Positions 2,971-55,352 of a stretch of DNA of 64,000 nt are shown one piece after another. The stretch spans positions 1,764 through 65,763 of the forward strand of contig JABCSY010000003.1 in assembly GCA_018238625.1 (NCBI GenBank), given 5' to 3'. Origin of the DNA: Promethearchaeota archaeon (GTDB taxonomy: Archaea; Asgardarchaeota; Lokiarchaeia; Sigyniarchaeales; SOKP01). The notes beneath the pieces were generated by a model. It ran no database searches, was not told the DNA's origin, and saw nothing but the letters and a program-made list of their open reading frames with translations. Each line of letters starts with the position of its first letter. Within the stretch, counting starts at the first letter, position 1. Made by a program: the position numbers and the translations under genes.

Positions 2971-4293
2971 ATGAGCTATAAATTTACAAAAGAGGAATTA
3001 GAAGAACTTTTAATTGATTACAATAAAATCGCTTTAAAAGAGCAAAAAGTTGATCTTCCTTCTAAAGTTTGTATCTGGGACGAAACATTGAGAGATGGTG
3101 AGCAAAGTCCTGCTGTTTACCTTACTTTAGACGAAAAAATCCATTTAGCGAAATTAATGGACGAAATAGGAGTAAAATTAATCGCAGTTGGGTTTCCAGC
3201 AGTCTCAAAAACCGAAAAGAAAATAGTTAAGGCGATAGTAAATGAAAATTGTAAACACGCTACCATCCTTGGAATTGCTCGCCCAAAGAAGGAAGATATT
3301 AACGCGTGTATCGATGTAGATCTTAAAGAAATCGTTATTTTCATGCCAATTTCTCCAATCTTTAGAAAAACTTTAAAACAAACACCTGAACAGCAACTAG
3401 AAATAATCGAAGGATCTATTCATTACGCGCAAGATAACGGATTTAAGGTCAATTGGGTTTCAGAAGATGGTACTAGATGCGATTATAATCATTTGATAAA
3501 TGTTTTCAAAACAGCAATAAAAGCTGGGGCAGAAAGGATCGTTCTTGGAGACACAGTAGGAGTTTTAACGCCTCGTTCTACTTCGTATTTGATTAAACAA
3601 ATAAAAAATGAAGTTATAAAACCGCTAAAAAAAGAGATTCCAATGGGTATTCACACGCACAACGATTTTGGTTTAGCGGTTGCTAATACAATTACTGGCG
3701 TGTTTGAAGGATGCACTTATCCGCATACATGTATAAATGGTTACGGTGAAAGAGCAGGAAATGCCGCTTTAGAAGAAGTCGCTACGAATCTTGAACGGAT
3801 AGGTATTAAAACAGGTATAGATTTGACAAAATTACCAGAATTAAGCGAAATTTGCGAAAAATATTTTTGCCAACCATTAGCCTTAAACAAAGCTATCGTT
3901 GGTGAACACGCTTTTAGTCACGAAAGCGGACTTCATATTGCTGCAATTTTGGCACATCCATTAACATATGAACCAATCAACCCACATATAGTAGGTAGAA
4001 GAAGGAAATTCTATTTAGGTAAGTTTTCAGGGTCTAAATCTATACTAAACGCGCTACAAAAAAAAATTAAGGTATTAGATTTAGACATTCCAGAAGAAAT
4101 TATTAAACGAATCGTTTTAGAAGTGAAAAAGAAACACGAGGAAACATCTAAAAAGGAATTAAGAAAGTCGTTTAAGATAATTAAACAAGAATTAGAGAAA
4201 GTTACAAAAGGAGTGGGGGATAAAGAGTTCTTTGAAATTGTAAATAAATACGCTCAACCATACGTTCCTGAGGAATTTAAGCCAAAAACTTAG
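2971..4293 (+). CDS. 2-isopropylmalate / homocitrate / citramalate synthase family enzyme (DRE-TIM aldolase)
   Basis: WDETLRDGEQSP, GIHTHNDFGLAVANT and HESGLH motifs. 440 aa, no obvious LeuA regulatory domain, so the exact substrate is unresolved. Confidence 0.75.
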   Translation: MSYKFTKEELEELLIDYNKIALKEQKVDLPSKVCIWDETLRDGEQSPAVYLTLDEKIHLAKLMDEIGVKLIAVGFPAVSKTEKKIVKAIVNENCKHATILGIARPKKEDINACIDVDLKEIVIFMPISPIFRKTLKQTPEQQLEIIEGSIHYAQDNGFKVNWVSEDGTRCDYNHLINVFKTAIKAGAERIVLGDTVGVLTPRSTSYLIKQIKNEVIKPLKKEIPMGIHTHNDFGLAVANTITGVFEGCTYPHTCINGYGERAGNAALEEVATNLERIGIKTGIDLTKLPELSEICEKYFCQPLALNKAIVGEHAFSHESGLHIAAILAHPLTYEPINPHIVGRRRKFYLGKFSGSKSILNALQKKIKVLDLDIPEEIIKRIVLEVKKKHEETSKKELRKSFKIIKQELEKVTKGVGDKEFFEIVNKYAQPYVPEEFKPKT

Positions 4294-4324: not shown

Positions 4325-5671
4325 TTATAGTTGTTTATCAATTTCTCCAATTTTGTTTTTAGTTACCTTCAAATCATTCTTCAGTTGATCAGACCGTTTT
4401 TCGTAAGATTTCTCATCCATTTGTCCTGCTGCATACTTCTTTTCTACAAAATCAAGTAAGTTTCGAACCGAATTAAGTTTACTTTCTAGTCCTTTCTTTT
4501 TGGCTACTAAATCTTTCTTTTTAACTTTCTTTTTAGTATGTGGTTTTGGAGAAGATTTTAATTTATCGGAGACATCGAGTCTTGGCAATCCAATAAAATA
4601 TTCGTCCTCTTTTTCATTTAAACTCTCAGGTCTTCTGGGTAGATCGGTAAGTGGTTCATTTGAGGCTATTAATTCGTCAAAACCATCACTTGTTGTTTGA
4701 GAGTAGCTCTGTTGCTTATTAGATGGGGGACCATTCAATTCCGAAAGTTTAGATTCCGAAGAAGCAACTGTTCTAATTAGTTTATCGATTGTAGTCTTTA
4801 TTGTATCGATTTGATTTTGAAAAATCTTTAGCAAATCGATTAATTCACTTTTATTAGATATTTCCATAGAAAAACTGATGTTCCTTCCATTTATTGCCGA
4901 ACTAATTGGTGGCACTTGGTAATCCATAGTTTGTGTTGTAGAAGATACCTCTTGAGGGGCAATCTCGGGGATAGCACCACTCGAATGCAATTCCATTCTA
5001 TAATCTGAAACTAACCATGAAAAAATATTAAACGCTAAATTGGGATGCTCGTCGTTACCAAAACCTCCTCCAACGCGGTCTCTAAATAGTTCATAACTTC
5101 CTATAGCACATACTCTTCCTTTATCTGGTTCAGCAACACAAATTAAGGGCGTAGAAAAAGGTTCTGAGGTTTCATTTGAGGACACAATAGAAATCGAACT
5201 ACCTACTAACGAAAGCGAGCATCCAGATCTAAAGCACAATGAACTAATACTATTTGTAATTGGATGTGGTGGAATAAATGCTGTAACTATAGGCATATTT
5301 TCCAAGCCTAAATTATAGGTGTTATCTAAAACTTGATCGTTTTCAAATACTATTCCAAATGTTTGACTTAGTTCGCTTAAGTTACTATTTCTTCCTCTAT
5401 CGCCCCCCGCATGTGACATCATCAATAACCCGCCTCCATCTTCTGAAATCCAACTTTTAATTTCAGTTATTTCCATCGAAGAGATTTTTGCAAAATCGGG
5501 GCAAACAAACACTAAAATATCAAAAGACTTTAAAGAATTTCGAGTAATCGGTGCTTCTAAGAAATTGTAACAAACAAAATCGTTTGCATTTAAGAAATCT
5601 CGTAATTCCGTTAGATTCTCGTCTAATTTTCCACGGGGCTTATGAGCCACATCAAACGCTATATTATACAT
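4325..5671 (-). CDS. Hypothetical protein: N-terminal GATase1-like/DUF4350-like domain, Ser/Thr-rich linker, C-terminal Lys-rich coiled coil
   Basis: 448-aa ORF. The N-terminal 220 aa (DILVFVCPDF..GGGLLMMSHAGGD) resemble the GldG/DUF4350 fold. The assignment is weak. Confidence 0.35.
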   Translation of the reverse strand: MYNIAFDVAHKPRGKLDENLTELRDFLNANDFVCYNFLEAPITRNSLKSFDILVFVCPDFAKISSMEITEIKSWISEDGGGLLMMSHAGGDRGRNSNLSELSQTFGIVFENDQVLDNTYNLGLENMPIVTAFIPPHPITNSISSLCFRSGCSLSLVGSSISIVSSNETSEPFSTPLICVAEPDKGRVCAIGSYELFRDRVGGGFGNDEHPNLAFNIFSWLVSDYRMELHSSGAIPEIAPQEVSSTTQTMDYQVPPISSAINGRNISFSMEISNKSELIDLLKIFQNQIDTIKTTIDKLIRTVASSESKLSELNGPPSNKQQSYSQTTSDGFDELIASNEPLTDLPRRPESLNEKEDEYFIGLPRLDVSDKLKSSPKPHTKKKVKKKDLVAKKKGLESKLNSVRNLLDFVEKKYAAGQMDEKSYEKRSDQLKNDLKVTKNKIGEIDKQL

Positions 5672-6884: not shown

Positions 6885-7661
6885 TTAATAAAACTTTGAC
6901 TCATCCGAATCGAAAATTCTTTGTAAATAGCCAAATAATAGATCGAGCCCATATTCTTCCTTATTTGAGCAGGGAATCAACTCTGAAGTGGTGCCTAATT
7001 GAACGAATACGTCTGAAATTAACATAGATAACTCCCTTATCAAACCACTTTCTCTTTCATTAGTGGAATCCTCTAACGCTCGAAAGTCTTGACTCCAATT
7101 AACAATCATATCGATTTGATCTTCGCCTAATAGATCAACTTTGGATAAAACATTAATTTGGGAAATATTTCTAAACCTAAATTGTACTGAGGCTGCTAAA
7201 AGTAGTGTAGAGATGAATCCATTAGGTCTGAGTACTAAGTTTGAATCAAAAAGAAAAGAAACTGCCTTTTGAATCGATCCAAAACCTAAAGAGCTTGCAA
7301 TTAAAGGACCCGTCTCCCTAAAAGCAAACAGTTCGAGCTGTCCCGCAGTATCTACAAATACCCAATCTGGATTGTATTCGTCAATTTCGTACTTTAAATC
7401 GTCTAGGAAGTTAACCATTAAATCAGAGGCTAAGATCATGGCTCCATTTGGCCCCAATCCGTATTCAGCCATTACTTCTTCGAGAACGATGAAGTCTCTT
7501 ACATCTATATCGGGAGTATAGGGCATTCTTTTAACGCCAGGGTCCAAGTTTAAAGTAATAGCCGAAATCTCAGGATTTCTTTTAAGAACGTAATCTTTAA
7601 ATAATCCTGTTAAAGTGGATTTACCGCTTCCAGCGGTACCAATAAAGTAGTTTAGTAACAT
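6885..7661 (-). CDS. GPN-loop GTPase
   Basis: P-loop GTAGSGKST, the diagnostic GPNGAM motif, DTAGQLE, and NVLSKVD (NKxD-like). Confidence 0.8.
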   Translation of the reverse strand: MLLNYFIGTAGSGKSTLTGLFKDYVLKRNPEISAITLNLDPGVKRMPYTPDIDVRDFIVLEEVMAEYGLGPNGAMILASDLMVNFLDDLKYEIDEYNPDWVFVDTAGQLELFAFRETGPLIASSLGFGSIQKAVSFLFDSNLVLRPNGFISTLLLAASVQFRFRNISQINVLSKVDLLGEDQIDMIVNWSQDFRALEDSTNERESGLIRELSMLISDVFVQLGTTSELIPCSNKEEYGLDLLFGYLQRIFDSDESKFY

Positions 7662-19761: not shown

Positions 19762-19865
19762 TGGGAGCGACCGGATTTGAACCGGTGACCAACAACTCTG
19801 GAGGCTGCCGCGTTCGGTACTATGCACCGAAAGGACAAAGTTATACCGGGCTTCGCCACGCCCCC
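19762..19865 (-). tRNA. tRNA-Trp: tRNA-Trp (anticodon CCA) with a roughly 30-nt insertion/intron in the D-arm
   Basis: Minus strand: GGGGGCG-TG-GCGA-AGCCCGGTA-T[AACTTTGTCCTTTCGGTGCATAGTACCGAA]CGC-G-GCAGC-CTCCAGA-GTTGT-TGGTC-ACCGG-TTCAAAT-CCGGT-CGCTCCC-A. The 7-bp acceptor, T-arm and anticodon loop CU-CCA-GA are all intact. Removing 30 nt restores a GCGA/TCGC D-stem and a 74-nt tRNA. No CCA is encoded. Confidence 0.75.
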
Positions 19866-26960: not shown

Positions 26961-27081
26961 AACTTTTTATAAAAATTGCTGATTATATTATGATATTAAG
27001 AATAATTTAAAATACCTTTGAACGATAAAGGGTTGTCTAAATAAATAAAATCAAATCAATCTTGCTAATAATCGAAAAAAA

Positions 27082-27870
27082 ATGGAAGTAGAAATTTTAG
27101 TAATTGGAAACGAAATCCTTATTGGAAAGACCCAAGATACTAATTCAAATTGGATGGCTAAAAGGGTAACGAAATACGGGCATAGGTTAAAAAGAATAAC
27201 TGCTATAGAAGATAGTATTGAGGTTATTTCAAATACCCTACAAACTATTTTAAAACGCAAACCAGATATGATAATTACTTCGGGAGGGATTGGACCTACA
27301 TTTGACGATATGACTTTAGCGGGGATAGCAAAGGGTTTAAATCGAGAATTAGAGCTAAACGAACACGCTTACAATTCTATAAAGAAGGCATATGAACACG
27401 CTTACGAAAGAGGAATTTTGAAACTTGAAGGCATGACCAAAGAAAGAGAAAAAATGGCACATCTTCCTCAAGGATCGACACCACTACCAAATATAAGAGG
27501 GACCGCCCCTGGAGTGAAAGTTAAGGAAGGTGAAACGGCAATTTTCGTGCTACCCGGTGTTCCCGCTGAAATGAAAGCGATTTTTCTTAACATTGTCAAA
27601 CCAATACTTAAAGAAAAAAGGGGAAAATTCGTAGAAAAGGGTTTCATTTTTACGGGTATTGGTGAATCTCAGATAGCTCCTTATGTTACTAAAGTTGAAG
27701 AGAAGTATCCTCAGTTATGGATTAAAACACACCCAAGGATCGGACTTGCAGTTGAAGTAGAAGTATCGATTACCTGTTTTAACGTTGAAAATGGAGAAGA
27801 ATTAGCAGAAAAAGCTTTGAAAGAAATAAAGGAGGTTATAGTAAAATTAGATGGTGAAATTAAATTATAA
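27082..27870 (+). CDS. CinA-like / MoaB-Mog molybdopterin-binding-fold protein
   Basis: ILVIGNEILIGKTQDTNSNWMAKRV...ITSGGIGPTFDDMT is the CinA N-terminal domain signature. Confidence 0.75.
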   Translation: MEVEILVIGNEILIGKTQDTNSNWMAKRVTKYGHRLKRITAIEDSIEVISNTLQTILKRKPDMIITSGGIGPTFDDMTLAGIAKGLNRELELNEHAYNSIKKAYEHAYERGILKLEGMTKEREKMAHLPQGSTPLPNIRGTAPGVKVKEGETAIFVLPGVPAEMKAIFLNIVKPILKEKRGKFVEKGFIFTGIGESQIAPYVTKVEEKYPQLWIKTHPRIGLAVEVEVSITCFNVENGEELAEKALKEIKEVIVKLDGEIKL

Positions 27871-27910
27871 ATGGAAATACTACCATAAAATTAAGGAATA
27901 AATTATTTTA

Positions 27911-27977
27911 GATGCCACCTTACGGGTGGAAACTCAATAAGCGCTCACTATCCAAGTGTTTTTTGCTTATATCAAAG
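27911..27977 (-). promoter_or_regulatory. Candidate SECIS element in the selD-1 3' UTR
   Basis: RNA sense: UGAU-AUAAGC-AAAAAA-CAC-UUGGAUA-GUG-AGC-GCUUAU-UGAG, followed by the hairpin CCACC-CGUAA-GGUGG. Begins about 10 nt after the stop. Conserved with 29436-29499. Confidence 0.55.
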
Positions 27978-27986
27978 ACATCTCTA

Positions 27987-29012
27987 TTACTTGATAATCT
28001 CAATATTTTCTGCATTATCAGCAATTCTAACTAAGCTTGGTTCAATGTTATCAATTGTGCCTACAATCCAATTCTCTATACTATTACTAATAAGAGCATT
28101 TGAAAATTCTTCAACCTTTTTAGGATCAATAGCAATCAACATCCCTCCAGCAGTTTCATGACAGCTACAATCGTCAAAAGCGTATCCTAATTCTTCTGAA
28201 AGTTCCTTTGAAAATCTTATTGATGGAATGGTTTCAATGATTGCTGATAAGGTAGAATTCTGCAGCATTTCTTTTATATGACCACTTAATCCAAAACCCG
28301 TTACATCTGTAAGCGCATGAACGAATGAAAAATCTTGATAAGAATGAATAGTTTTTACTACATTCTGATTTGGTGTAATCATTAATTCTATAGCATAATC
28401 AATTGATTTTTGTAGTTCACTTCTTGAATATTGTTCTAACATTTCAGGCATATTATTAAGTATCCTATAAGCAGCCATAGTCGCCTGTAGGCCAATGGGT
28501 TTAGTTAGAATCAATTTATCTCCTTCTTTAACTCCTTGTTTTAGAATTATTGAGTCTTTGTGAGCAAAACCCGAAGCCTCCCCCCCAATCATTGGCCATT
28601 CGCTATATATAGTATGGCCTCCAACTACTTGCGAATTAATTTTTTCTTCCATAAAATATTTAATTCCTTTTAATATTCCTTCAGCTACTTCCATTGGAGT
28701 ATTAGTATTGATCCCTAAAAATACTAACATTCCAGAAATATCTGGAACATTCATCGCAAATATGTCACTGGTTACATTAGACGCAGCAATTTGACCCATA
28801 ACTTCTGGTTCGTCGACAATAGGGGTAAAAACATCAATATTTTTGACCATCACTAAATCACTGTTTGGGACTGGGATGATCGCAGCATCTTCAATATCGC
28901 CTTGTAATCCCGCTCTCGCTAGTAAGTTCTCTAGGCTATTTGGACCAAGTTTACAACTTCATCCGTGAATCTTAACCTGTGAAGTAAGTCTATATACTTC
29001 CTTTTTCTCCAT
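27987..29012 (-). CDS. selD: Selenophosphate synthetase, Sec-containing (in-frame UGA at 28961-28959)
   Basis: The track ORF 27987-28853 extends upstream through TGA to the ATG at 29012 (SD GAGGTGA): MEKKEVYRLTSQVKIHG-U-SCKLGPNSLENLLARAGLQGDIEDAAIIPVP... The G-[U/C]-x-C-K motif and AIR-synthase-like body (GGHTIYSEWP..GGEASG, TDVTGFGLSGH) are typical of SelD. Confidence 0.85.
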
Positions 29013-29435
29013 TTTTCACCTCAAATCTTATTTTATTTTAAATTTTATTGATTTAATTTTGTAATAAAGGAATCAAGAATAGTTAATTGAAAAAATCTCT
29101 CTTATTTATTAATATTATCGATTCTATTTATCTATTTTTTCGATAAGGAAATTTATTCAATTTTAAAACAATATTACACCCGTGTTATAAGGACTTTAAT
29201 AAAACAGTTGGTGTTCAAGGTAACTAAAAACTACTTAAGTAATTTTATTGTATGCTTATTTTCCGGTTAAGACAAAAAAAAATTGAAGATAATTTCAATC
29301 AAAATGTAAATTCTTTAGGGTTTTCAAGGCGTTTTTTTAGATTGTACTTAAAAGAATGGAAGCGCAAAAATCTAAGTGAAATTTAAGATTTGGAAAATTA
29401 ATTATAAATTGATAATAAAAACAGTAAAGCTTTTC

Positions 29436-29499
29436 GATGCCTTCTTGCGAGGGTACTCTCAATAAGCTCTCACATATAGTGTTTTAGCTTATTTCATTG
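29436..29499 (-). promoter_or_regulatory. Candidate SECIS element in the selD-2 3' UTR
   Basis: RNA sense: AUGA-AAUAAGC-UAAAA-CAC-UAUAU-GUG-AGA-GCUUAUU-GAG. Same architecture as 27911-27977, with divergent loops and conserved stems. Begins about 7 nt after the stop. Confidence 0.55.
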
Positions 29500-29505
29500 A
29501 CATCG

Positions 29506-30543
29506 TTAAATTTTAGTTATTTCGACATGCTCAACATTTTTCGAAATTTGAACAAGTCGAGGTTCATTAATGTTATCGATTGTTCCTACAATCCAATTAG
29601 ACACATGATATTCATTGGCAAGTCTCTTGGAAAATTCTTCGGCATATTCGCGATCAACAGAAAGGAGCATCCCCCCAGCGGTCTCAGGCATTTCGCATTC
29701 ATCGAATTTGTATCCAAAATCGTACGATAGTTCTTTTGCTAGTTTAAATATTGGGACCTTCTTAATATTAGCTGAAAGGTTAGATTCTTGGAGCATCTCC
29801 TTTAAGTGTCCTGAGAGTCCAAAACCGGAAACATCTGTCATTGAATGTACGAAAGATACATCTTGATAAGAATGGATAGTCTTTACAACGTTTTGTAGCG
29901 GCAAAGTCATAAATTCTATGGCCAAATCAATGGATCTATTGATTTTAGCTTTGGAGTATGTTTCTAAGAGGTCTGGTCTGTTTTTTTGTAAGCGATATGC
30001 GGCCATGATTGCTTGGTTTCCCACGGGGTTAGTCAGTATTAATTTATCACCTTCTTCTACGTAGTTCTTTTTAATCAGTTTGTTTTTATTGACGAATCCT
30101 GAAGCTTCGCCGCCAATTAAAGGCCATTCTGAATAGATTGTATGTCCTCCAAGTACTTTCGAGTGTATTTTATTTTCCATGAAATTTCTAATACCTTTCA
30201 ACATCCCTTCTGCGATGTGCATAGGCATGTTTTTTTTCAAGCCAAGAAATATTAGCATTCCTGAGACATCTAGAACGTTTAGCGCGAAAACATCGTTAGT
30301 GACGTTTGCAGCAGCGATCTCACCCATTATATCTGGTTCGTCGATAATCGGTGTAAAGATGTCAATGTTTTTTACCAGTACTAAATCGGTATTTGGTACG
30401 GGAATTACAGCAGAATCCTCGATATCTCCTTTCAAGCCAGCGCCAGCCAACAATTCGTCTAATTTTTTAGAATCAAGTTTACAGTTTCATCCGAATAATT
30501 TTGTCTGCAGTGTCAGTCGATAACTATATTCTTCTTGTAGCAT
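29506..30543 (-). CDS. selD: Selenophosphate synthetase paralog, Sec-containing (in-frame UGA at 30489-30487)
   Basis: The track ORF 29506-30453 extends through TGA to the ATG at 30543 (SD GAGGTGA): MLQEEYSYRLTLQTKLFG-U-NCKLDSKKLDELLAGAGLKGDIEDSAVIPVP... The body is collinear with the neighbouring SelD. Confidence 0.85.
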
Positions 30544-30710
30544 TCACCTCACGATTTTTTAAATATATTATAAACCTTCTCGATTGTGAATCTAAAAGAC
30601 TATCTGGTTATATTAATATTTTTGTAATAAATTATTTATTATTTCGATATAAAGAGGAGCTTTTTTTAGGATCTACAAAAAAAACTAATAAATTATTAGG
30701 AAGTAAAAGA

Positions 30711-33620
30711 TCACGGCAATAATAGGTCTATTTTTTTAGTTATTCTACGTGTAATATCGAACGGATCTTTATAATAAATGTTAAGGTTAACTTCGTCAAC
30801 TGTGGGGTCTGTTAAGTTTTTTTCAATATTTCGTTCGATTCTTAAGACATAATTGAACTTAAACACATTTCCAGGTTTTAACTCTTTAATATATAGATAT
30901 TTAGGAAAGCTTTCTTTTCTCAAAAATGTTAGGTACACAGGAGTCTTAAGAGAAATTTGTAATTCTGAAAACATTAGATTGGTTGGATTGTTCAATTTAA
31001 AATTAAAATAAATCTTATTTCCGATCGTCTTTATGCTCTTGAAGAAAAGGATATCCTTCGGTTCAATAATATCTTCTATCCTTGGCGAATAAAGGCTGTC
31101 CTTAATAATTTTTGCATTGAGTTTATTTTTATTAACGAACTTTACAAGTTTTTCTTTCAACGGATCGATATCTAAATCTATAAAAGAGGAAAGACTCTCT
31201 AATTTAATAGGATTCATGACATCGAGATAATATTTTATTTGGTTTAAGAGAAGTTTATCTTTACTCTTTTGTGTAAAGATTTTTAGTTTATTGATAAGCA
31301 TTTCCTTAAACGATACAAATTTTGTAATAGAAGGTCTTATGTATAGGTTAAAAACATCATTTTCTTCAGTTAGTTTTCCTACAATATTGTCTATTTGATT
31401 TTCATAATCCTCGATATAATTTTGAATTTGGTTAGTATTCATTTCTATAAGCTTTTTAGCGTCCGAGAATTCACTCCTTTTTAGCAAGATACTTAATTTT
31501 GATTCTAAATTAACGAAACTATCGTTAAATCGTTTAAGACCTTCGATTCCTTGCGTGATGATTGATTGTATATGACCTTGGAATAATATTGAAGATAACA
31601 TTTTAAGTTTTTGATCTTTAACTTTGCTATTAGAGCGTTGAATTTCAAGTACGATTCTATCTTTTATTAACCTTACTTTTCTATCTAAATCGCTCAAATA
31701 TTCTTGAAGTTCTATCTTAACAGCAACCCAGTTTCTTAACAAATCTTTAAACATTTCATTAAATTCTACATTCTGCACTAAGATTTCACGAATATCGTCA
31801 TCAAGTTTGAATAGATAATTTCTAAGTTGTGTAATTTGTTGGAATCTTTCTTCGATTTCGTCATCGGGAAAATTCTCTAATAGCAGCTCGTCAAAGCTTT
31901 CGGGAAGTTTATAATCCTTCAGATAATCATATTGAACTTTTAATACTTTAATACGGTCATCTAAAAGTTTAACTTTTGATTTTAGGCTAACAGTAAATTC
32001 TGCTTTCTTTTCTTCAAAAATCTCGGAAATGAATCCTCTGATAATACTGAGTTCATCAATAATGGTAACTTTAGTTTCTTCCCAATCCTCTATTAAATTA
32101 AACGCTAATCTCTTGTACTCGAATTTGTTTAGCCTCTTATTAAATTTCTTTACTTTTTTTAGTATTTTACGGTACACTTTATCTAATTCCATTTCAGTCT
32201 CGTGAAATTTGAATTCTTTTATGTAAGAATTCATTTTTTCTCTAAATTGAGCTGGAATTTTTTGGAATTCGTGAATTTTTTTATGAAACATTTCTAAATC
32301 TTCGTTAACAATTTGGATTGTTTTATCAATTTCTTTAAATTTTGCTTTGATAATTTTAATCGTATAAATGATTTCTTCGTTTACATCTGGATCGCTTTCA
32401 GATTTTAAAACTTTTTCCAATTCTATAAAAATCCAGACAGCTACTTTTTGACTTTCTAATATAAAACTTATATTCCTCAAAAGAATAATAGTTTTTTTTC
32501 TTTGACGCCAATATTTAGATTCTAATTGGTATAAAATTTTTGCAATTTCGTTTTCAATTTCTACTTGATATTCTTCATAAAGGCGCTTAAAAACGAGAGC
32601 AACTGCTTTTCTGACGTTTTCAGATGGATTTTCAAACTCTTCAAAGATGTAATTAAAAACTTCCATAATATTGTTTTGACACAAGTGATACAGCGCATTA
32701 ATAATTACATTTCTAAATTCGGGCTCGCCTGTATATAATGCTGTTTTTAAATTCGCCCAAATTTGATCGAAATTATTCTCCGCAATGTTTACCAAAGAAT
32801 CGATTACTCTAAGTTGGATACGGTAGTTATTTTCTTTTAAAAGGTTAATCAATTTAGGTATAATTGGAATTATTTCTGACGATTTTTCTTTTCCTATTTC
32901 TCCAATTAACCAAATAATGAGTTCTTTTACGCGAGCTTGTTCGTTGTTAAGAAGGTTTAATAGAACATATATAATATTTTCCTTTGATAGAAAATAAGTA
33001 CCAAGGATTTTCAAAAGTTCTGCGGACGACCTCGCAACGTCATCGTCTTCGTCCCTTAAATTAACGATTACAATAGAAAGTAACGGCTCTAATTCTCGTA
33101 TCTTAGTGTAGTCTTGATTTATAATTTTCTTAAGAGTCTTGATAACTTGAAGTTTAACTTCCCAGTCATTATCCATCAATTTTTCTGTAAATTCTTCAAT
33201 AATGTCTCGTAACTTTTCTCTATCAATGTGTAAAGAAAGAATTAGATTCCCAATAATCTTTACAGCTAATCTCCTAATAGAGGGTTCTTGATCAAAAAGT
33301 CGTGACCTTATCTTATTTATTAGATCAATTAATAAATTTGGACGGTACATTGAAATTTGATACAGAATTTCCAAAGAAACTAATCTAATCCAAGAGTTAA
33401 TATCATTTATTGTATTTGCTAAGTTTCTTACTGTTCTTAAAGAAATTGCCGGTGACTTATCGCAGATTTTATTCAATAAAGTTAAACTATCGTATAGTAG
33501 TTCTTTATTTGAGTGCTCTGGATTTTCAATAATTTCAAAAAGTTCTTCAGCGGCATTTTCATAACTACCGCTTAAAATTAATTCTTCAACTTTTCTTTCG
33601 TCTAATGTCAGAATAGTCAA
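30711..33620 (-). CDS. Large HEAT/ARM-repeat protein with central coiled coil and beta-rich C-terminal domain
   Basis: 969 aa. The N-terminal 400 aa or so contain repeated HEAT-like units (SIRRLAVKIIGNL, DWEVKLQVIKTLKKI, DDDVARSSAELLKILG, ARVKELIIWLIGEIG, YRIQLRVIDSLVNI, ENVRKAVALVFKRL, DPDVNEEIIYTI). Confidence 0.55.
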   Translation of the reverse strand: MTILTLDERKVEELILSGSYENAAEELFEIIENPEHSNKELLYDSLTLLNKICDKSPAISLRTVRNLANTINDINSWIRLVSLEILYQISMYRPNLLIDLINKIRSRLFDQEPSIRRLAVKIIGNLILSLHIDREKLRDIIEEFTEKLMDNDWEVKLQVIKTLKKIINQDYTKIRELEPLLSIVIVNLRDEDDDVARSSAELLKILGTYFLSKENIIYVLLNLLNNEQARVKELIIWLIGEIGKEKSSEIIPIIPKLINLLKENNYRIQLRVIDSLVNIAENNFDQIWANLKTALYTGEPEFRNVIINALYHLCQNNIMEVFNYIFEEFENPSENVRKAVALVFKRLYEEYQVEIENEIAKILYQLESKYWRQRKKTIILLRNISFILESQKVAVWIFIELEKVLKSESDPDVNEEIIYTIKIIKAKFKEIDKTIQIVNEDLEMFHKKIHEFQKIPAQFREKMNSYIKEFKFHETEMELDKVYRKILKKVKKFNKRLNKFEYKRLAFNLIEDWEETKVTIIDELSIIRGFISEIFEEKKAEFTVSLKSKVKLLDDRIKVLKVQYDYLKDYKLPESFDELLLENFPDDEIEERFQQITQLRNYLFKLDDDIREILVQNVEFNEMFKDLLRNWVAVKIELQEYLSDLDRKVRLIKDRIVLEIQRSNSKVKDQKLKMLSSILFQGHIQSIITQGIEGLKRFNDSFVNLESKLSILLKRSEFSDAKKLIEMNTNQIQNYIEDYENQIDNIVGKLTEENDVFNLYIRPSITKFVSFKEMLINKLKIFTQKSKDKLLLNQIKYYLDVMNPIKLESLSSFIDLDIDPLKEKLVKFVNKNKLNAKIIKDSLYSPRIEDIIEPKDILFFKSIKTIGNKIYFNFKLNNPTNLMFSELQISLKTPVYLTFLRKESFPKYLYIKELKPGNVFKFNYVLRIERNIEKNLTDPTVDEVNLNIYYKDPFDITRRITKKIDLLLP

Positions 33621-37420: not shown

Positions 37421-38476
37421 TTACTGTGAGTTATCGTACTTATCCTTTAAATAAGATACCACTTCATCAAGATTTTCTCCAGTTAAGGCGTTAATTAAAA
37501 AGTACTCTTCGTCTCTGATATTTAACTTTTCTTTAAGATATTCAATCTCATCAGCGTTGGCTAAATCCATTTTATTGAATAGAAGTACAATCTGGATTTT
37601 TCCCTCTTTTGTAAAATTATTTTTAATTTCGTAAAATAAGTCCAATTGCGAATCAATAGAATAACCACATGCGGGAGTTGGGTCAAATACGAAAAGAATT
37701 AAGTCAGATATTAGTTTTAGAGCTAAAACTGCTTGTAATTCAATGTTGTTTCTTTCTACCATTGACCTGTCCAATATTCCGGGTGTGTCCATAATTTGTA
37801 ATTTAATTGAATCAAATTTCCTCTCGATAAATAGATGGCCTAACGATAATTTTTTTGTTGTGAATGGGTATTCTTGAATTTCAACTTTTTTGTTCGTCGA
37901 AATATTTTTCACAATACTACTTTTACCCACGTTAGGATATCCCGCGACTACGATACAATGTATAGTGTAGTCGAGCGAGGGGATTTCTTTTAATCTCCCT
38001 CTAACGCTATTTAAATATTCGAGGTTTTTATTTTGTTTTCTAATTATCGACGAAATTCTTCCAAATGCAGCTCTTCTGATTCGATCAGCGTCTCTAGGTG
38101 CTTCAATCTGGCTTAATTGTTTTGAATGTTCTCTTTCTAATTTGCTTAAAAGGGGTAAAATTCCATTAAGTTTTCCAAGAGTTAATTTTAACTCGTCAAC
38201 ATCGACCAATAATGACGCCAACTCTTTGTAAAAATCAGGCAGATCGTCTATTATTGGCACTTTCTTAATTATGCCAAGAATTCTATCTATTAATTCCTTA
38301 TTTGCTACTTTTATTCGTGTAAATTCCTTTTTTTTTGCCTTTAAAAGAATAGGCGCATTCTTTGAGACTTTAGCGCTACTTTTCATAGCTCTCTTAAAAG
38401 CTATGTCTAATAATTCTTTTGAATTATGGACGTGGGAAAATTCTAAAAAGGGGTTCTTCATGAAATTTTGTAACAA
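37421..38476 (-). CDS. NOG1-family GTPase
   Basis: NOG1-type helical N-domain followed by the G domain AGYPNVGKSS, DTPGILDR and NKMD. Confidence 0.8.
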   Translation of the reverse strand: MLQNFMKNPFLEFSHVHNSKELLDIAFKRAMKSSAKVSKNAPILLKAKKKEFTRIKVANKELIDRILGIIKKVPIIDDLPDFYKELASLLVDVDELKLTLGKLNGILPLLSKLEREHSKQLSQIEAPRDADRIRRAAFGRISSIIRKQNKNLEYLNSVRGRLKEIPSLDYTIHCIVVAGYPNVGKSSIVKNISTNKKVEIQEYPFTTKKLSLGHLFIERKFDSIKLQIMDTPGILDRSMVERNNIELQAVLALKLISDLILFVFDPTPACGYSIDSQLDLFYEIKNNFTKEGKIQIVLLFNKMDLANADEIEYLKEKLNIRDEEYFLINALTGENLDEVVSYLKDKYDNSQ

Positions 38477-53315: not shown

Positions 53316-55352
53316 TTGCGTCTATTTGGTAATACATTTGAAGGTTATAGAGAAATAAAAGGATATAGTAAAGAAGAAATTTTAAGGATTAAAAATTCTA
53401 TTTCAAGCCTTAAATCTGACAAAACAAAATCACAAGAGATCGAAGATTTCCTTAAATCTGAATTTAAGCTTGAGGTTCTCAACTCTTTCACAGATTATTT
53501 TAATGAAATTAAACCTTTTTGCGAGAATTATTTATTTTCTCAAACAAAAAAGGATTATTATTCTATAAAAGCAGTAATTATTGACGAGTTAAAACTAATC
53601 TCTAGCAATTTAACAAGCTTAAGCTCAAATGGTAGAAACGTGAAGCGGATCGTAAAGAATGGAGGGCACCTTGAAAATTACTTAACAATTTGTAAGGAGT
53701 CTATTAATAACCTTGACGATTTTATCCTTCGTTTAGAGAATTCTTCAGTAAAAATAGAGCACGATTACGAAAACGATATATCCTTATGGATTGAAGCAAA
53801 TAAAATAAAAAACCTATCTTTTAAATTAAACCTTATTCCAGACGATTTGAATAATTGGAAAGAAATTCAAGAGTTTGCCATCTACATACAAAGTTTGGTT
53901 GAGGCTAAAACAGCAAAAAAAATAAAATCTCGTAAAGGAACTTTATTAACATTTCATTTCGATGAGCTTTACCAGTTTTTTTTAAGTAAATCAGATGGAA
54001 AAAAAGATTCTTACGGTGATCTAATTTATTTGTTATATCAAAATAAGATATTCGAAGAATTTGAAGGAGAAGAATTTGTAAACGTCCTTGAAAGGAAAGA
54101 GTCAGTGCAAAGATTAAGGGATAAAATGCGTTCGCCTATAATTGCATTAATAAAAAATAAATTAAAAGAAAACTTGCAAGAACTTGAAGATTTAGATAAG
54201 CAATACGATTTAACTGGAAATGGACAAGGTAAACTAGATTTAAACCACGTTATGGAGCAAAAATTCAGTGTATTTCTCCCTCAAGTCGTTGATTTATATT
54301 TTAAGGGCATAGATAAGAAATTTCAAGGAGCGATAAACGATGTAAGTGACTCCGAGAAATTCGTAAAAATCGTGAATTCAAATTACGATAAAGTGGATGA
54401 TTTTGCGTTAAAAATTGACGAAATTGACACATGGATATTAACTTTTGATAAAATTATAAAACCCTATGAGAATATTACAGCAACTTTAAAAAAGACCTTG
54501 GCAAATATTATATCTGAAATTATTCGACGCAAGGAGGAGTATGTAAATTATCTTAATAATATTAAAGATGAGGGCTTACGAGTAGATGTCAGAAGTTTTG
54601 TTGACGAAAAAATTGCTGAAGTGAATAAATTAATTAATTCATACGAAGATGAGACATCTATTATCATTAGAGAAGAATTACCGCAACTAAGAGAAATAAG
54701 AGACTTATTAACGAATTATAAAGTAAAAATTGAACAAATTAAAGAAGAAGTTTACATTAAATTGGATACTTACAAGGAAAGCAACATAGAGATGTATTCA
54801 ATCATCAAATATTGGGAAGATAATTTCAATCGCAAGAAACAACAGCTCACTTTCTTATTAACAGTTTTGATGAATAAAATTTTTAAAAGTTTTAAGGGTT
54901 TAATTGATAAAGAATCAATATTATTTGCTGAAATTACTGAAATCACTAAGCAAACCGAGAATTTCGAAGGGTTACCTTTAAATTTCGCTTTATCGTCTTT
55001 TTTAGCAAATAAATTATCTGAAGATGAACTTAGAGAAAGGATTTCTGAAATTAATTCAAAAATTAATCAATTGACAAGCAGTCTTGGTTTATATCAAGTA
55101 GAACACTCAAGAATAGAAGAAATACTATCTACTAAAGTTAAAATAAGAGAGGGTGTATCAGTATCCAATGTTCAATGTACTGTTTGTCATAAACACATAA
55201 ATTTTGCCAAAGATAAATTAATTACATGCCCTTTCTGTGGATCTACCTATCATTATCTATGTGTTGCTGATTGGCTTGCGAGATATAATTCATGTCCTAT
55301 GTGCCAAAACCAATACTTGGATCCAAATTTAGGATTGTTTGAAAGCGAATAA
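53316..55352 (+). CDS. Large coiled-coil protein with C-terminal C4HC3 RING/PHD-like zinc finger
   Basis: 678 aa. The finger lies at 55176-55304: C-x2-C-x13-C-x2-C-x4-H-x2-C-x10-C-x2-C, with the RING-typical HYLCVADWL....CPMC. Start codon uncertain (TTG). Confidence 0.7.
   Translation: MRLFGNTFEGYREIKGYSKEEILRIKNSISSLKSDKTKSQEIEDFLKSEFKLEVLNSFTDYFNEIKPFCENYLFSQTKKDYYSIKAVIIDELKLISSNLTSLSSNGRNVKRIVKNGGHLENYLTICKESINNLDDFILRLENSSVKIEHDYENDISLWIEANKIKNLSFKLNLIPDDLNNWKEIQEFAIYIQSLVEAKTAKKIKSRKGTLLTFHFDELYQFFLSKSDGKKDSYGDLIYLLYQNKIFEEFEGEEFVNVLERKESVQRLRDKMRSPIIALIKNKLKENLQELEDLDKQYDLTGNGQGKLDLNHVMEQKFSVFLPQVVDLYFKGIDKKFQGAINDVSDSEKFVKIVNSNYDKVDDFALKIDEIDTWILTFDKIIKPYENITATLKKTLANIISEIIRRKEEYVNYLNNIKDEGLRVDVRSFVDEKIAEVNKLINSYEDETSIIIREELPQLREIRDLLTNYKVKIEQIKEEVYIKLDTYKESNIEMYSIIKYWEDNFNRKKQQLTFLLTVLMNKIFKSFKGLIDKESILFAEITEITKQTENFEGLPLNFALSSFLANKLSEDELRERISEINSKINQLTSSLGLYQVEHSRIEEILSTKVKIREGVSVSNVQCTVCHKHINFAKDKLITCPFCGSTYHYLCVADWLARYNSCPMCQNQYLDPNLGLFESE

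Follow-up and report, generated by a model that had tools for sequence, protein, structure and literature searches.

Tandem selD paralogs that probably each encode a selenocysteine-containing selenophosphate synthetase in a Lokiarchaeia contig

Introduction

Selenophosphate synthetase (SelD, or SPS) supplies the selenium donor for all selenocysteine (Sec) synthesis, and the selD genes of Asgard archaea, together with their Sec insertion sequence (SECIS) elements, have been proposed as an evolutionary bridge to the eukaryotic Sec system. Here, we describe two adjacent selD genes, designated selD-A and selD-B, each with an in-frame TGA at the catalytic codon, on a contig of a Promethearchaeota archaeon of the Lokiarchaeia (JABCSY010000003.1, assembly GCA_018238625.1, positions 1,764 to 65,763 of the forward strand). 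This 64,000-nucleotide stretch is referred to throughout as the window, and coordinates are those of the window. We assign a probability of roughly 0.85 to the reading that both are genuine Sec-encoding selD genes, specifying two functional, separately expressed selenophosphate synthetases that descend from an old tandem duplication.

The closest described system is the SPS of Lokiarchaeota. Mariotti 2016 (PMC4989117) reported that the Sec-containing SPS of this group is accompanied by a distinct type II-like element, the SPS lokiSECIS, in which the main stem is short and one more stem is present in the apical part, and that the Loki elements are overlooked by existing SECIS tools. The window genes share with that system the clade and the enzyme, a UGA at the homologous Sec site, and an element placed directly after the stop codon, which combines an AUGA...GA core and a short main stem with an apical part that is rich in A and has a further stem. 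That study takes SPS as one family (“nine Loki-like SPS genes”), and the available portions of its text contain no description of tandem paralogs or of the extra 3′-side hairpin documented below; contigs of the same Loki's Castle metagenome (LAZR01...) are included in our metagenome set. Huang 2024 (PMC11227280) listed 51 organisms of the Loki- and Thorarchaeia with two or more selD genes, a multiplicity rare in other prokaryotes, described the selD elements as mainly type II eSECIS-like, and considered that selD might have a new function or play a more active part. The main text of that paper is without the tandem layout, the A and B subfamilies, and the lineage-specific loss of A, and a term search of its supplement was also negative. 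Since Sec-SelD and multicopy selD have been published in these two papers, the finding is already known in substance, as an instance of a published phenomenon, and the present work refines it incrementally without introducing a new type of system. What seems undescribed is the arrangement in tandem, the division into two orthologous subfamilies, the loss of A, and the covarying 3′-side hairpin, and our literature searches for a tandem selD pair specific to Lokiarchaeia returned nothing specific. An earlier note on this DNA had called such a side-by-side pair unusual, which is correct for prokaryotes generally but not within Lokiarchaeia, where the pair is common and conserved.

Adjacent, same-strand Sec genes with a 3′ SECIS are also known from the HdrA-VhuD/FrhD pairs of Lokiarchaeota and Methanococcales. 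Those pairs, however, encode different proteins, have very short spacers, and share one SECIS after the second gene, whereas the selD genes are paralogs separated by 230 to 500 nt; each of them has a SECIS to itself, and a T-run comes after the first SECIS. The Sec-SelD enzymes of Methanococcales and Methanopyrus are likewise self-dependent on Sec and use a SECIS in the 3′ untranslated region (UTR), but theirs is the classical archaeal element (GAA_A), whereas that of Loki selD is eukaryote-like type II. Metazoan SPS1 and SPS2 offer a parallel, in that SPS was duplicated there too and both copies were retained as they diverged. In work attributed to Mariotti et al. of 2015, SPS1 reportedly has another residue in place of Sec or Cys and has lost selenophosphate synthesis; unlike SPS1, both Loki copies retain Sec and the catalytic motifs. 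Among solved structures, the two SelD proteins described here are closest in sequence to eukaryotic SPS (3fd5 and 9hjt).

Two collinear selD genes, each with one in-frame TGA

Both genes lie on the minus strand, with selD-A upstream. selD-A extends from 30543 to 29506 including its TAA stop codon (29508-29506) and encodes 345 residues, counting Sec19 of the motif LFG-U-NCK. Its ATG start codon (30543-30541) directly abuts a GAGGTGA ribosome-binding motif (30544 to 30550), and the in-frame TGA is codon 19 (30487 to 30489, context ...TKLFG-U-NCKLDS). selD-B extends from 29012 to 27987, again including a TAA stop codon (27989-27987), and encodes 341 residues, counting Sec18 of the motif IHG-U-SCK. 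Here the ATG (29012-29010) follows the GAGGTGA motif (29016 to 29022) by 3 nt, and the TGA is codon 18 (28959 to 28961, context ...VKIHG-U-SCKLGP). The GAGGTGA motif is also found upstream of nearly all selD orthologs when their start regions are compared. A mechanical list of open reading frames (ORFs) shortens both genes to starts just downstream of the TGA, at 30453 for selD-A and 28853 for selD-B. This truncation, the positions of the two TGA codons (30489-30487, read through as LFG-U-NCKLDS, and 28961-28959, read through as IHG-U-SCKLGP), and the GAGGTGA motif before each ATG (30550-30544 and 29022-29016) had all been recognized in the earlier note and hold as given there.

The two proteins are collinear and share 62% identity (214/343, E 3e-167), within the 60 to 70% that had been estimated by eye, and their genes are only ~68% identical as DNA. 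Both score above the curated cutoff of 125 bits of the SelD equivalog model TIGR00476 (203.8 bits for B and 174.3 bits for A), a profile comparison of the kind that the earlier note had proposed, and fall slightly below the cutoff of 291 bits of a narrower archaeal model, NF010705 (279.9 bits for B and 257.8 bits for A). AIRS (PF00586) and AIRS_C (PF02769) domains are found above gathering scores in both, and the closest solved relatives of both are human SEPHS1 (3fd5, 9hjt), followed by the SelD proteins of Leishmania, Aquifex, and E. coli. The glycine-rich loop with its Sec-x-C-K motif reads HG-U-SCK in B and FG-U-NCK in A, and the motif is kept in all orthologs. Alignment to SEPHS1 further reveals that both copies retain the Asp motifs EDxAxIP (xDxxxIP), D-x-FTPIxD, NVTxDxFA (NVxxDxFA), and TDVxGFG, the conserved Asp residues of which we take, on the basis of SelD structures, to be metal/ATP ligands. 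Because Sec, the loop Lys, and the Asp motifs are retained in A and B alike, both look catalytically competent, and the best-supported reading of their sequences is that both would be working selenophosphate synthetases.

Public annotation of this family departs from the extended frames. Database SelD entries of relatives are mostly N-terminally short, at 287 to 321 residues, and five full-length database proteins (P0001, P0002, P0005, P0021, and P0032), all from short contigs of 1 to 4 kb, carry W at the Sec site, most likely as a result of gene calling with an alternative genetic code. The annotation of these selD genes in public databases is thus nearly always short or with W, and systematically wrong at the active site.

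Conservation of the TGA codon

We compared the window with two sets of loci, 21 from related genomes and 66 from metagenomes. The window and the related genomes together hold 37 selD genes, and every one of them has TGA at the homologous codon (15/15 of the A type and 22/22 of the B type); in the metagenome set, 97 of 98 selD start regions have TGA and one has TGT. Pooling both surveys, TGA is kept in 134/135 selD start regions, with TGT (Cys) the sole exception, and a TGA/TGT difference at the catalytic site is the classic Sec/Cys exchange. The gene with TGT is of the A type (locus L048 at 2741, contig Ga0209977_10003738) and retains downstream, at 3755-3835, a SECIS with a full score; the TGT could reflect either a sequencing error or a conversion of Sec to Cys that took place recently.

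Over the 11 codons that precede the TGA, nearly all amino acids are conserved in both clades, with abundant synonymous change. In A-type genes, for example, the Gly at position -1 is encoded by GGA, GGG, GGT, and GGC, and the Leu at position -3 by five different codons. The ratio of nonsynonymous to synonymous substitution rates (dN/dS) between orthologs is 0.06 to 0.16 for A and 0.08 to 0.16 for B. Elsewhere in the window, TGA serves as the stop codon of 7 of 50 long ORFs, one of which is the HEAT-repeat gene immediately upstream of the selD pair, and candidates for a further TGA-split ORF or selenoprotein gene in the window, in which TGA would be a sense codon, were inspected and none was convincing. 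The conservation of the TGA, the synonymous change around it, dN/dS values of ~0.1, and the use of TGA as a stop codon elsewhere together indicate that the duplication is old, real, and under selection. This comparative evidence excludes pseudogenes, sequencing error, and genome-wide reassignment of TGA, down to the very small probabilities that we leave to such explanations below, and upholds the case of the earlier note that a TGA at the homologous codon of two diverged copies is neither a pseudogene lesion nor a sequencing error.

A SECIS element after each gene

A structured element follows each stop codon, and the statement of the earlier note that each copy has a downstream element of its own thereby holds. 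The 3′ flanks of A and B can be aligned over ~80 nt. The SECIS of selD-A occupies 29429 to 29505 on the minus strand (covariance model 91.7 bits, E 2.5e-18, with the match spanning 29429-29508; fold z-score -2.95), and that of selD-B occupies 27904 to 27986, also on the minus strand (75.8 bits, E 1.4e-14). In the A element, helix I (CGAUG/CAUCG) leads to an AUGA...GA core, helix II (AUAAGC/GCUUAU), an apical AAA, and a ministem, and the 3′ side carries an extra hairpin. The B element has the same architecture, but with a UUGA...GA core and CCACC/GGUGG as the 3′ hairpin.

The structure was derived from 33 elements of the genome set with RNAalifold and an explicit structure count. In the consensus, helix I is (C)GAUG/CAUC(G), and a 5′ (A/U)UGA lies opposite a 3′ UGA(G/A), in which the UGA never varies and the 3′ GA reaches at least 90% or full conservation; this arrangement is the predicted tandem G.A/A.G K-turn core of eukaryotic SECIS elements. 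Helix II has 6 bp that are 98 to 100% paired and is followed by an invariant AAA, and the apical ministem is 83 to 92% paired, with compensatory changes in 3/4 pairs. Between the core and helix I, the 3′ side holds a further hairpin in which compensatory changes are numerous, e.g., CCACC/GGUGG versus CUGUU/AACAG. Overall, 91.7% of cells are paired in the genome-set elements and 14/20 pairs have compensatory changes, with 0/500 shuffles matching the observed values on four of five measures and slid controls giving 30 to 51% pairing. The metagenome elements behave in the same way (94.4% of cells paired, 15/20 pairs compensatory, and 0/500 shuffles on all five measures), with slid controls across both sets at 24 to 51%.

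A covariance model built from the genome-set alignment, which contains no metagenome contigs, finds exactly one match per selD gene, 0 to 8 nt after the stop codon, two of them in the 64-kb window, and recovers 95 elements in the metagenome contigs. No comparable match occurs elsewhere in 296 kb, where two weak matches (18 to 19 bits, E about 0.5) are all that the model returns. The Rfam SECIS models give no match in the whole window at gathering thresholds, and none over 27000-31000 even at E values up to 10, in line with what Mariotti 2016 (PMC4989117) reported of SECIS tools and Loki elements; the selD element is one that resembles eukaryotic SECIS elements and is not a member of the Rfam SECIS models. 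The UGA lies ~975 nt upstream of the element, and this distance places the pair in the archaeal/eukaryal 3′ UTR mode of decoding. A T5 run at about 29421-29417 follows the A element and, because each gene also has its own ribosome-binding motif, it suggests that A and B are two transcription units.

Two individual elements in related genomes stand out. In locus L001 (7027-7106), the SECIS after selD-B has a 5′ half that hardly differs from the A-type SECIS found in that lineage and a 3′ half of the B type, which suggests gene conversion between the tandem elements. In locus L016 (7027-7105), the 3′ UTR of selD-B has no sequence match to the model, but its fold (z-score -2.9) has the three-way shape of the other elements, and AUGA...UGA borders the main stem.

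Tandem arrangement, phylogeny, and apparent loss of selD-A

selD-B served as the query for the genome survey and selD-A for the metagenome survey. An A-then-B tandem is found on one contig in 14 of the 21 related genomes, including the closed chromosome CP070805.1, and in 46 of 48 informative metagenome contigs. The genes are on the same strand with A upstream, usually 230 to 500 nt (0.23 to 0.5 kb) apart, and the arrangement holds in genomes whose orthologs are only ~75% identical to the window proteins. Some metagenome loci (L023, L030, L038, L055, and L062/L063) have a spacer of 1.1 to 3.7 kb, which implies insertions between the genes. The neighborhood is conserved as well, in the order MaoC/dehydratase gene, HEAT-repeat gene, [A], B, convergent CinA-like MoCF gene, and hypothetical gene; in genomes without A, the HEAT gene is directly upstream of B. 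selD-B is present in all 21 related genome loci.

In a neighbor-joining tree with bootstrap, the A orthologs of the 14 genomes form a clade with 100% support on a long stem branch, in agreement with the view of the earlier note that the two are diverged paralogs, and A and B fall into separate clades. Together with the single-copy genes of L017-L019, A and B are separated with 100% bootstrap from the nearest outgroups, which are 40 to 46% identical. Mean within-clade identity is 81% for A and 81% for B. The two clades are fixed for different residues at 23 sites, among them F/H at position -2 and N/S at position +1 relative to Sec, S/A beside the first Asp motif, and S/T in TDVxGFG. At most of these sites, including all of those flanking Sec, the single-copy genes have the B state, which together with the long stem of the A clade makes B look ancestral-like and A derived.

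selD-A appears to have been lost secondarily at least once and to be dispensable in some lineages. In locus L004 (3300-3520 of JAUWHC010000249.1), whose contig matches the window at 93% identity, a clean deletion has removed the selD-A coding sequence (corresponding to window 30719 to 29525), and the last ~19 nt of the gene persist with the A SECIS as an orphan upstream of selD-B; an error of assembly or a natural strain without A would account for this.

Proposed function of the two enzymes

We propose that one old tandem duplication of an ancestral selD gene, seated between the HEAT-repeat gene and the convergent CinA-like gene, would have given rise to the pair, and that the single UGA of each mRNA would be decoded as Sec by way of the eukaryote-like type II SECIS close to the stop codon. 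selD-B (IHG-U-SCK) may be the ancestral-type housekeeping enzyme that provides selenophosphate for Sec-tRNA synthesis, and selD-A (LFG-U-NCK) may be a derived, still catalytic copy. Because both enzymes would need Sec, selenium activation would depend on its own product, as it does in other organisms with a Sec-SelD. The fixed changes in A near the Sec loop and the Asp motifs suggest tuning of activity, regulation, or partner choice, and the A/B differences are compatible with subfunctionalization or with heterodimer formation. SelD acts as a dimer, and for this reason an A/B heterodimer is one possibility. A stronger proposal, which we consider quite unlikely, is that A and B make up an obligate two-enzyme system restricted to the Lokiarchaeia, in which A either forms a heterodimer with B and so tunes or regulates the supply of selenophosphate or channels activated selenium to a novel pathway, and that the 3′ hairpin of the SECIS is a selD-specific regulatory handle; if this is true, the hairpin might serve, for example, in autoregulation of Sec-dependent SelD synthesis. 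With two subfamilies that each have their own SECIS and both carry Sec, the locus is a natural system in which to ask why two Sec-dependent synthetases persist and which SECIS features decoding requires.

Alternative explanations

The ORFs beginning at 28853 and 30453 are exactly what standard ORF calling yields, and the short public annotations of relatives resemble them, as would be expected if TGA were a real stop and one or both genes were pseudogenes or N-terminally short. Against this, the codons before the TGA are conserved as amino acids through synonymous change in both clades, a consensus ribosome-binding site and ATG stand ahead of the extended frame in nearly all orthologs, the short ORFs are without the catalytic Sec/Cys-x-x-Lys loop, one ortholog has TGT, and dN/dS is ~0.1; we therefore regard this explanation as very improbable. 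Genome-wide reassignment of TGA to Trp or Gly (codes 4 and 25) would account for W at the Sec site of P0001, P0002, P0005, and other entries, but the short contigs from which these entries come point to alternative-code gene calling. Moreover, TGA stops 7/50 long ORFs of the window and is found in frame only in the two selD genes, where its alignment position is that of the catalytic Sec/Cys of SelD, each of these genes has a conserved SECIS behind it, and a window tRNA with an intron is read as having the anticodon CCA, all of which leaves reassignment with hardly any credibility. As to the chance that an assembly or binning artifact has merged the selD genes of two related strains, both Mariotti 2016 (PMC4989117) and a 2026 review caution that Asgard metagenome-assembled genomes can mix strains. 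The same contig, order, and orientation nevertheless recur in about 60 independent assemblies, one of them a closed chromosome, and A and B share only ~68% DNA identity and fall into separate orthologous clades, so that a strain mixture is extremely improbable, and this locus shows the “multiple selD genes” of Asgard metagenome-assembled genomes to be true ancient tandem paralogs.

More weight, although we still judge it unlikely, goes to the explanation that copy A has taken on a new role, either in delivering activated selenium (or sulfur) to selenouridine, a selenium cofactor, or a selenoneine-type molecule, or as a purely regulatory or heterodimeric partner of B. The long stem branch of the A clade speaks for it, as do the 23 A/B-fixed sites, several of which lie by the catalytic loop, the first Asp motif, and TDV(S/T)GFG, and the dispensability of A in some strains (the L004 deletion and the single-copy relatives); Huang 2024 (PMC11227280) likewise raises a possible “new function.” On the other side, A retains Sec, the loop Lys, and all Asp motifs and is under the same purifying selection as B. 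No SelU/YbbB-, YqeB/C-, or SenA/B-like gene is found in the window (Pfam on 30 neighboring or large ORFs) or the conserved neighborhood, and Mariotti 2016 (PMC4989117) found neither ybbB nor yqeB/yqeC in Lokiarchaeota. The division of labor that the earlier note had envisaged, with Sec synthesis assigned to one copy and selenouridine or cofactor pathways to the other, is not borne out by these gene inventories.

Several observations weigh against the reading of two functional Sec-encoding paralogs or against parts of it. tRNA-Sec, EFsec, PSTK, and SepSecS are not found within the 64-kb window (Rfam, ARAGORN, and Pfam on 30 neighboring or large ORFs), and the Rfam tRNA-Sec model has no match at gathering thresholds over the whole window or at E values up to 10 over 27000-31000. 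As this is an Asgard archaeon, the earlier note named the appropriate machinery in PSTK, SepSecS, and EFsec. Sec machinery has been reported in Lokiarchaeota by Huang 2024 (PMC11227280) and Mariotti 2016 (PMC4989117), and we infer its presence in this genome solely from such literature on the clade. The B element of the window has UUGA, not the canonical AUGA, a variant also present in L002, L021, and L019, and its single-sequence fold is no better than that of shuffles (z-score -0.35), its support being comparative, from covariation. Monophyly of B is weak (16 to 34% bootstrap), and the proposed polarity, with B ancestral and A derived, consequently draws on character states and branch length. 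Because each survey started from a different copy, B for the genomes and A for the metagenomes, the impression of a B that is never lost is in part a product of sampling, and in two contigs (L043 and L046) synteny breaks off and no B is seen within 4 kb of A.

Genomic context

The best homologs carry the annotation Promethearchaeota/Promethearchaeia, which corresponds to the Lokiarchaeia of the Asgard archaea. The window has ~31% G+C and includes several genes with eukaryote-like domains that are typical of Asgard genomes. These encode an IFT52 GIFT-domain protein (4325-5671, minus strand), a GPN-loop GTPase (ATP_bind_1; 6885-7661, minus strand), the 969-residue HEAT-repeat protein that is syntenic with selD in all relatives (30711-33620, minus strand), a NOG1-type GTPase (37421-38476, minus strand), and a RING-finger protein (53316-55352, plus strand). 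The sole above-threshold Rfam match in the window (49 bits) is a 104-nt tRNA on the minus strand at 19762-19865, in which an additional, intron-like hairpin separates the D arm from the anticodon arm; ARAGORN found no tRNA. This tRNA was considered as a tRNA-Sec and rejected, given its anticodon loop CUCCAGA, which is read as CCA (Trp).

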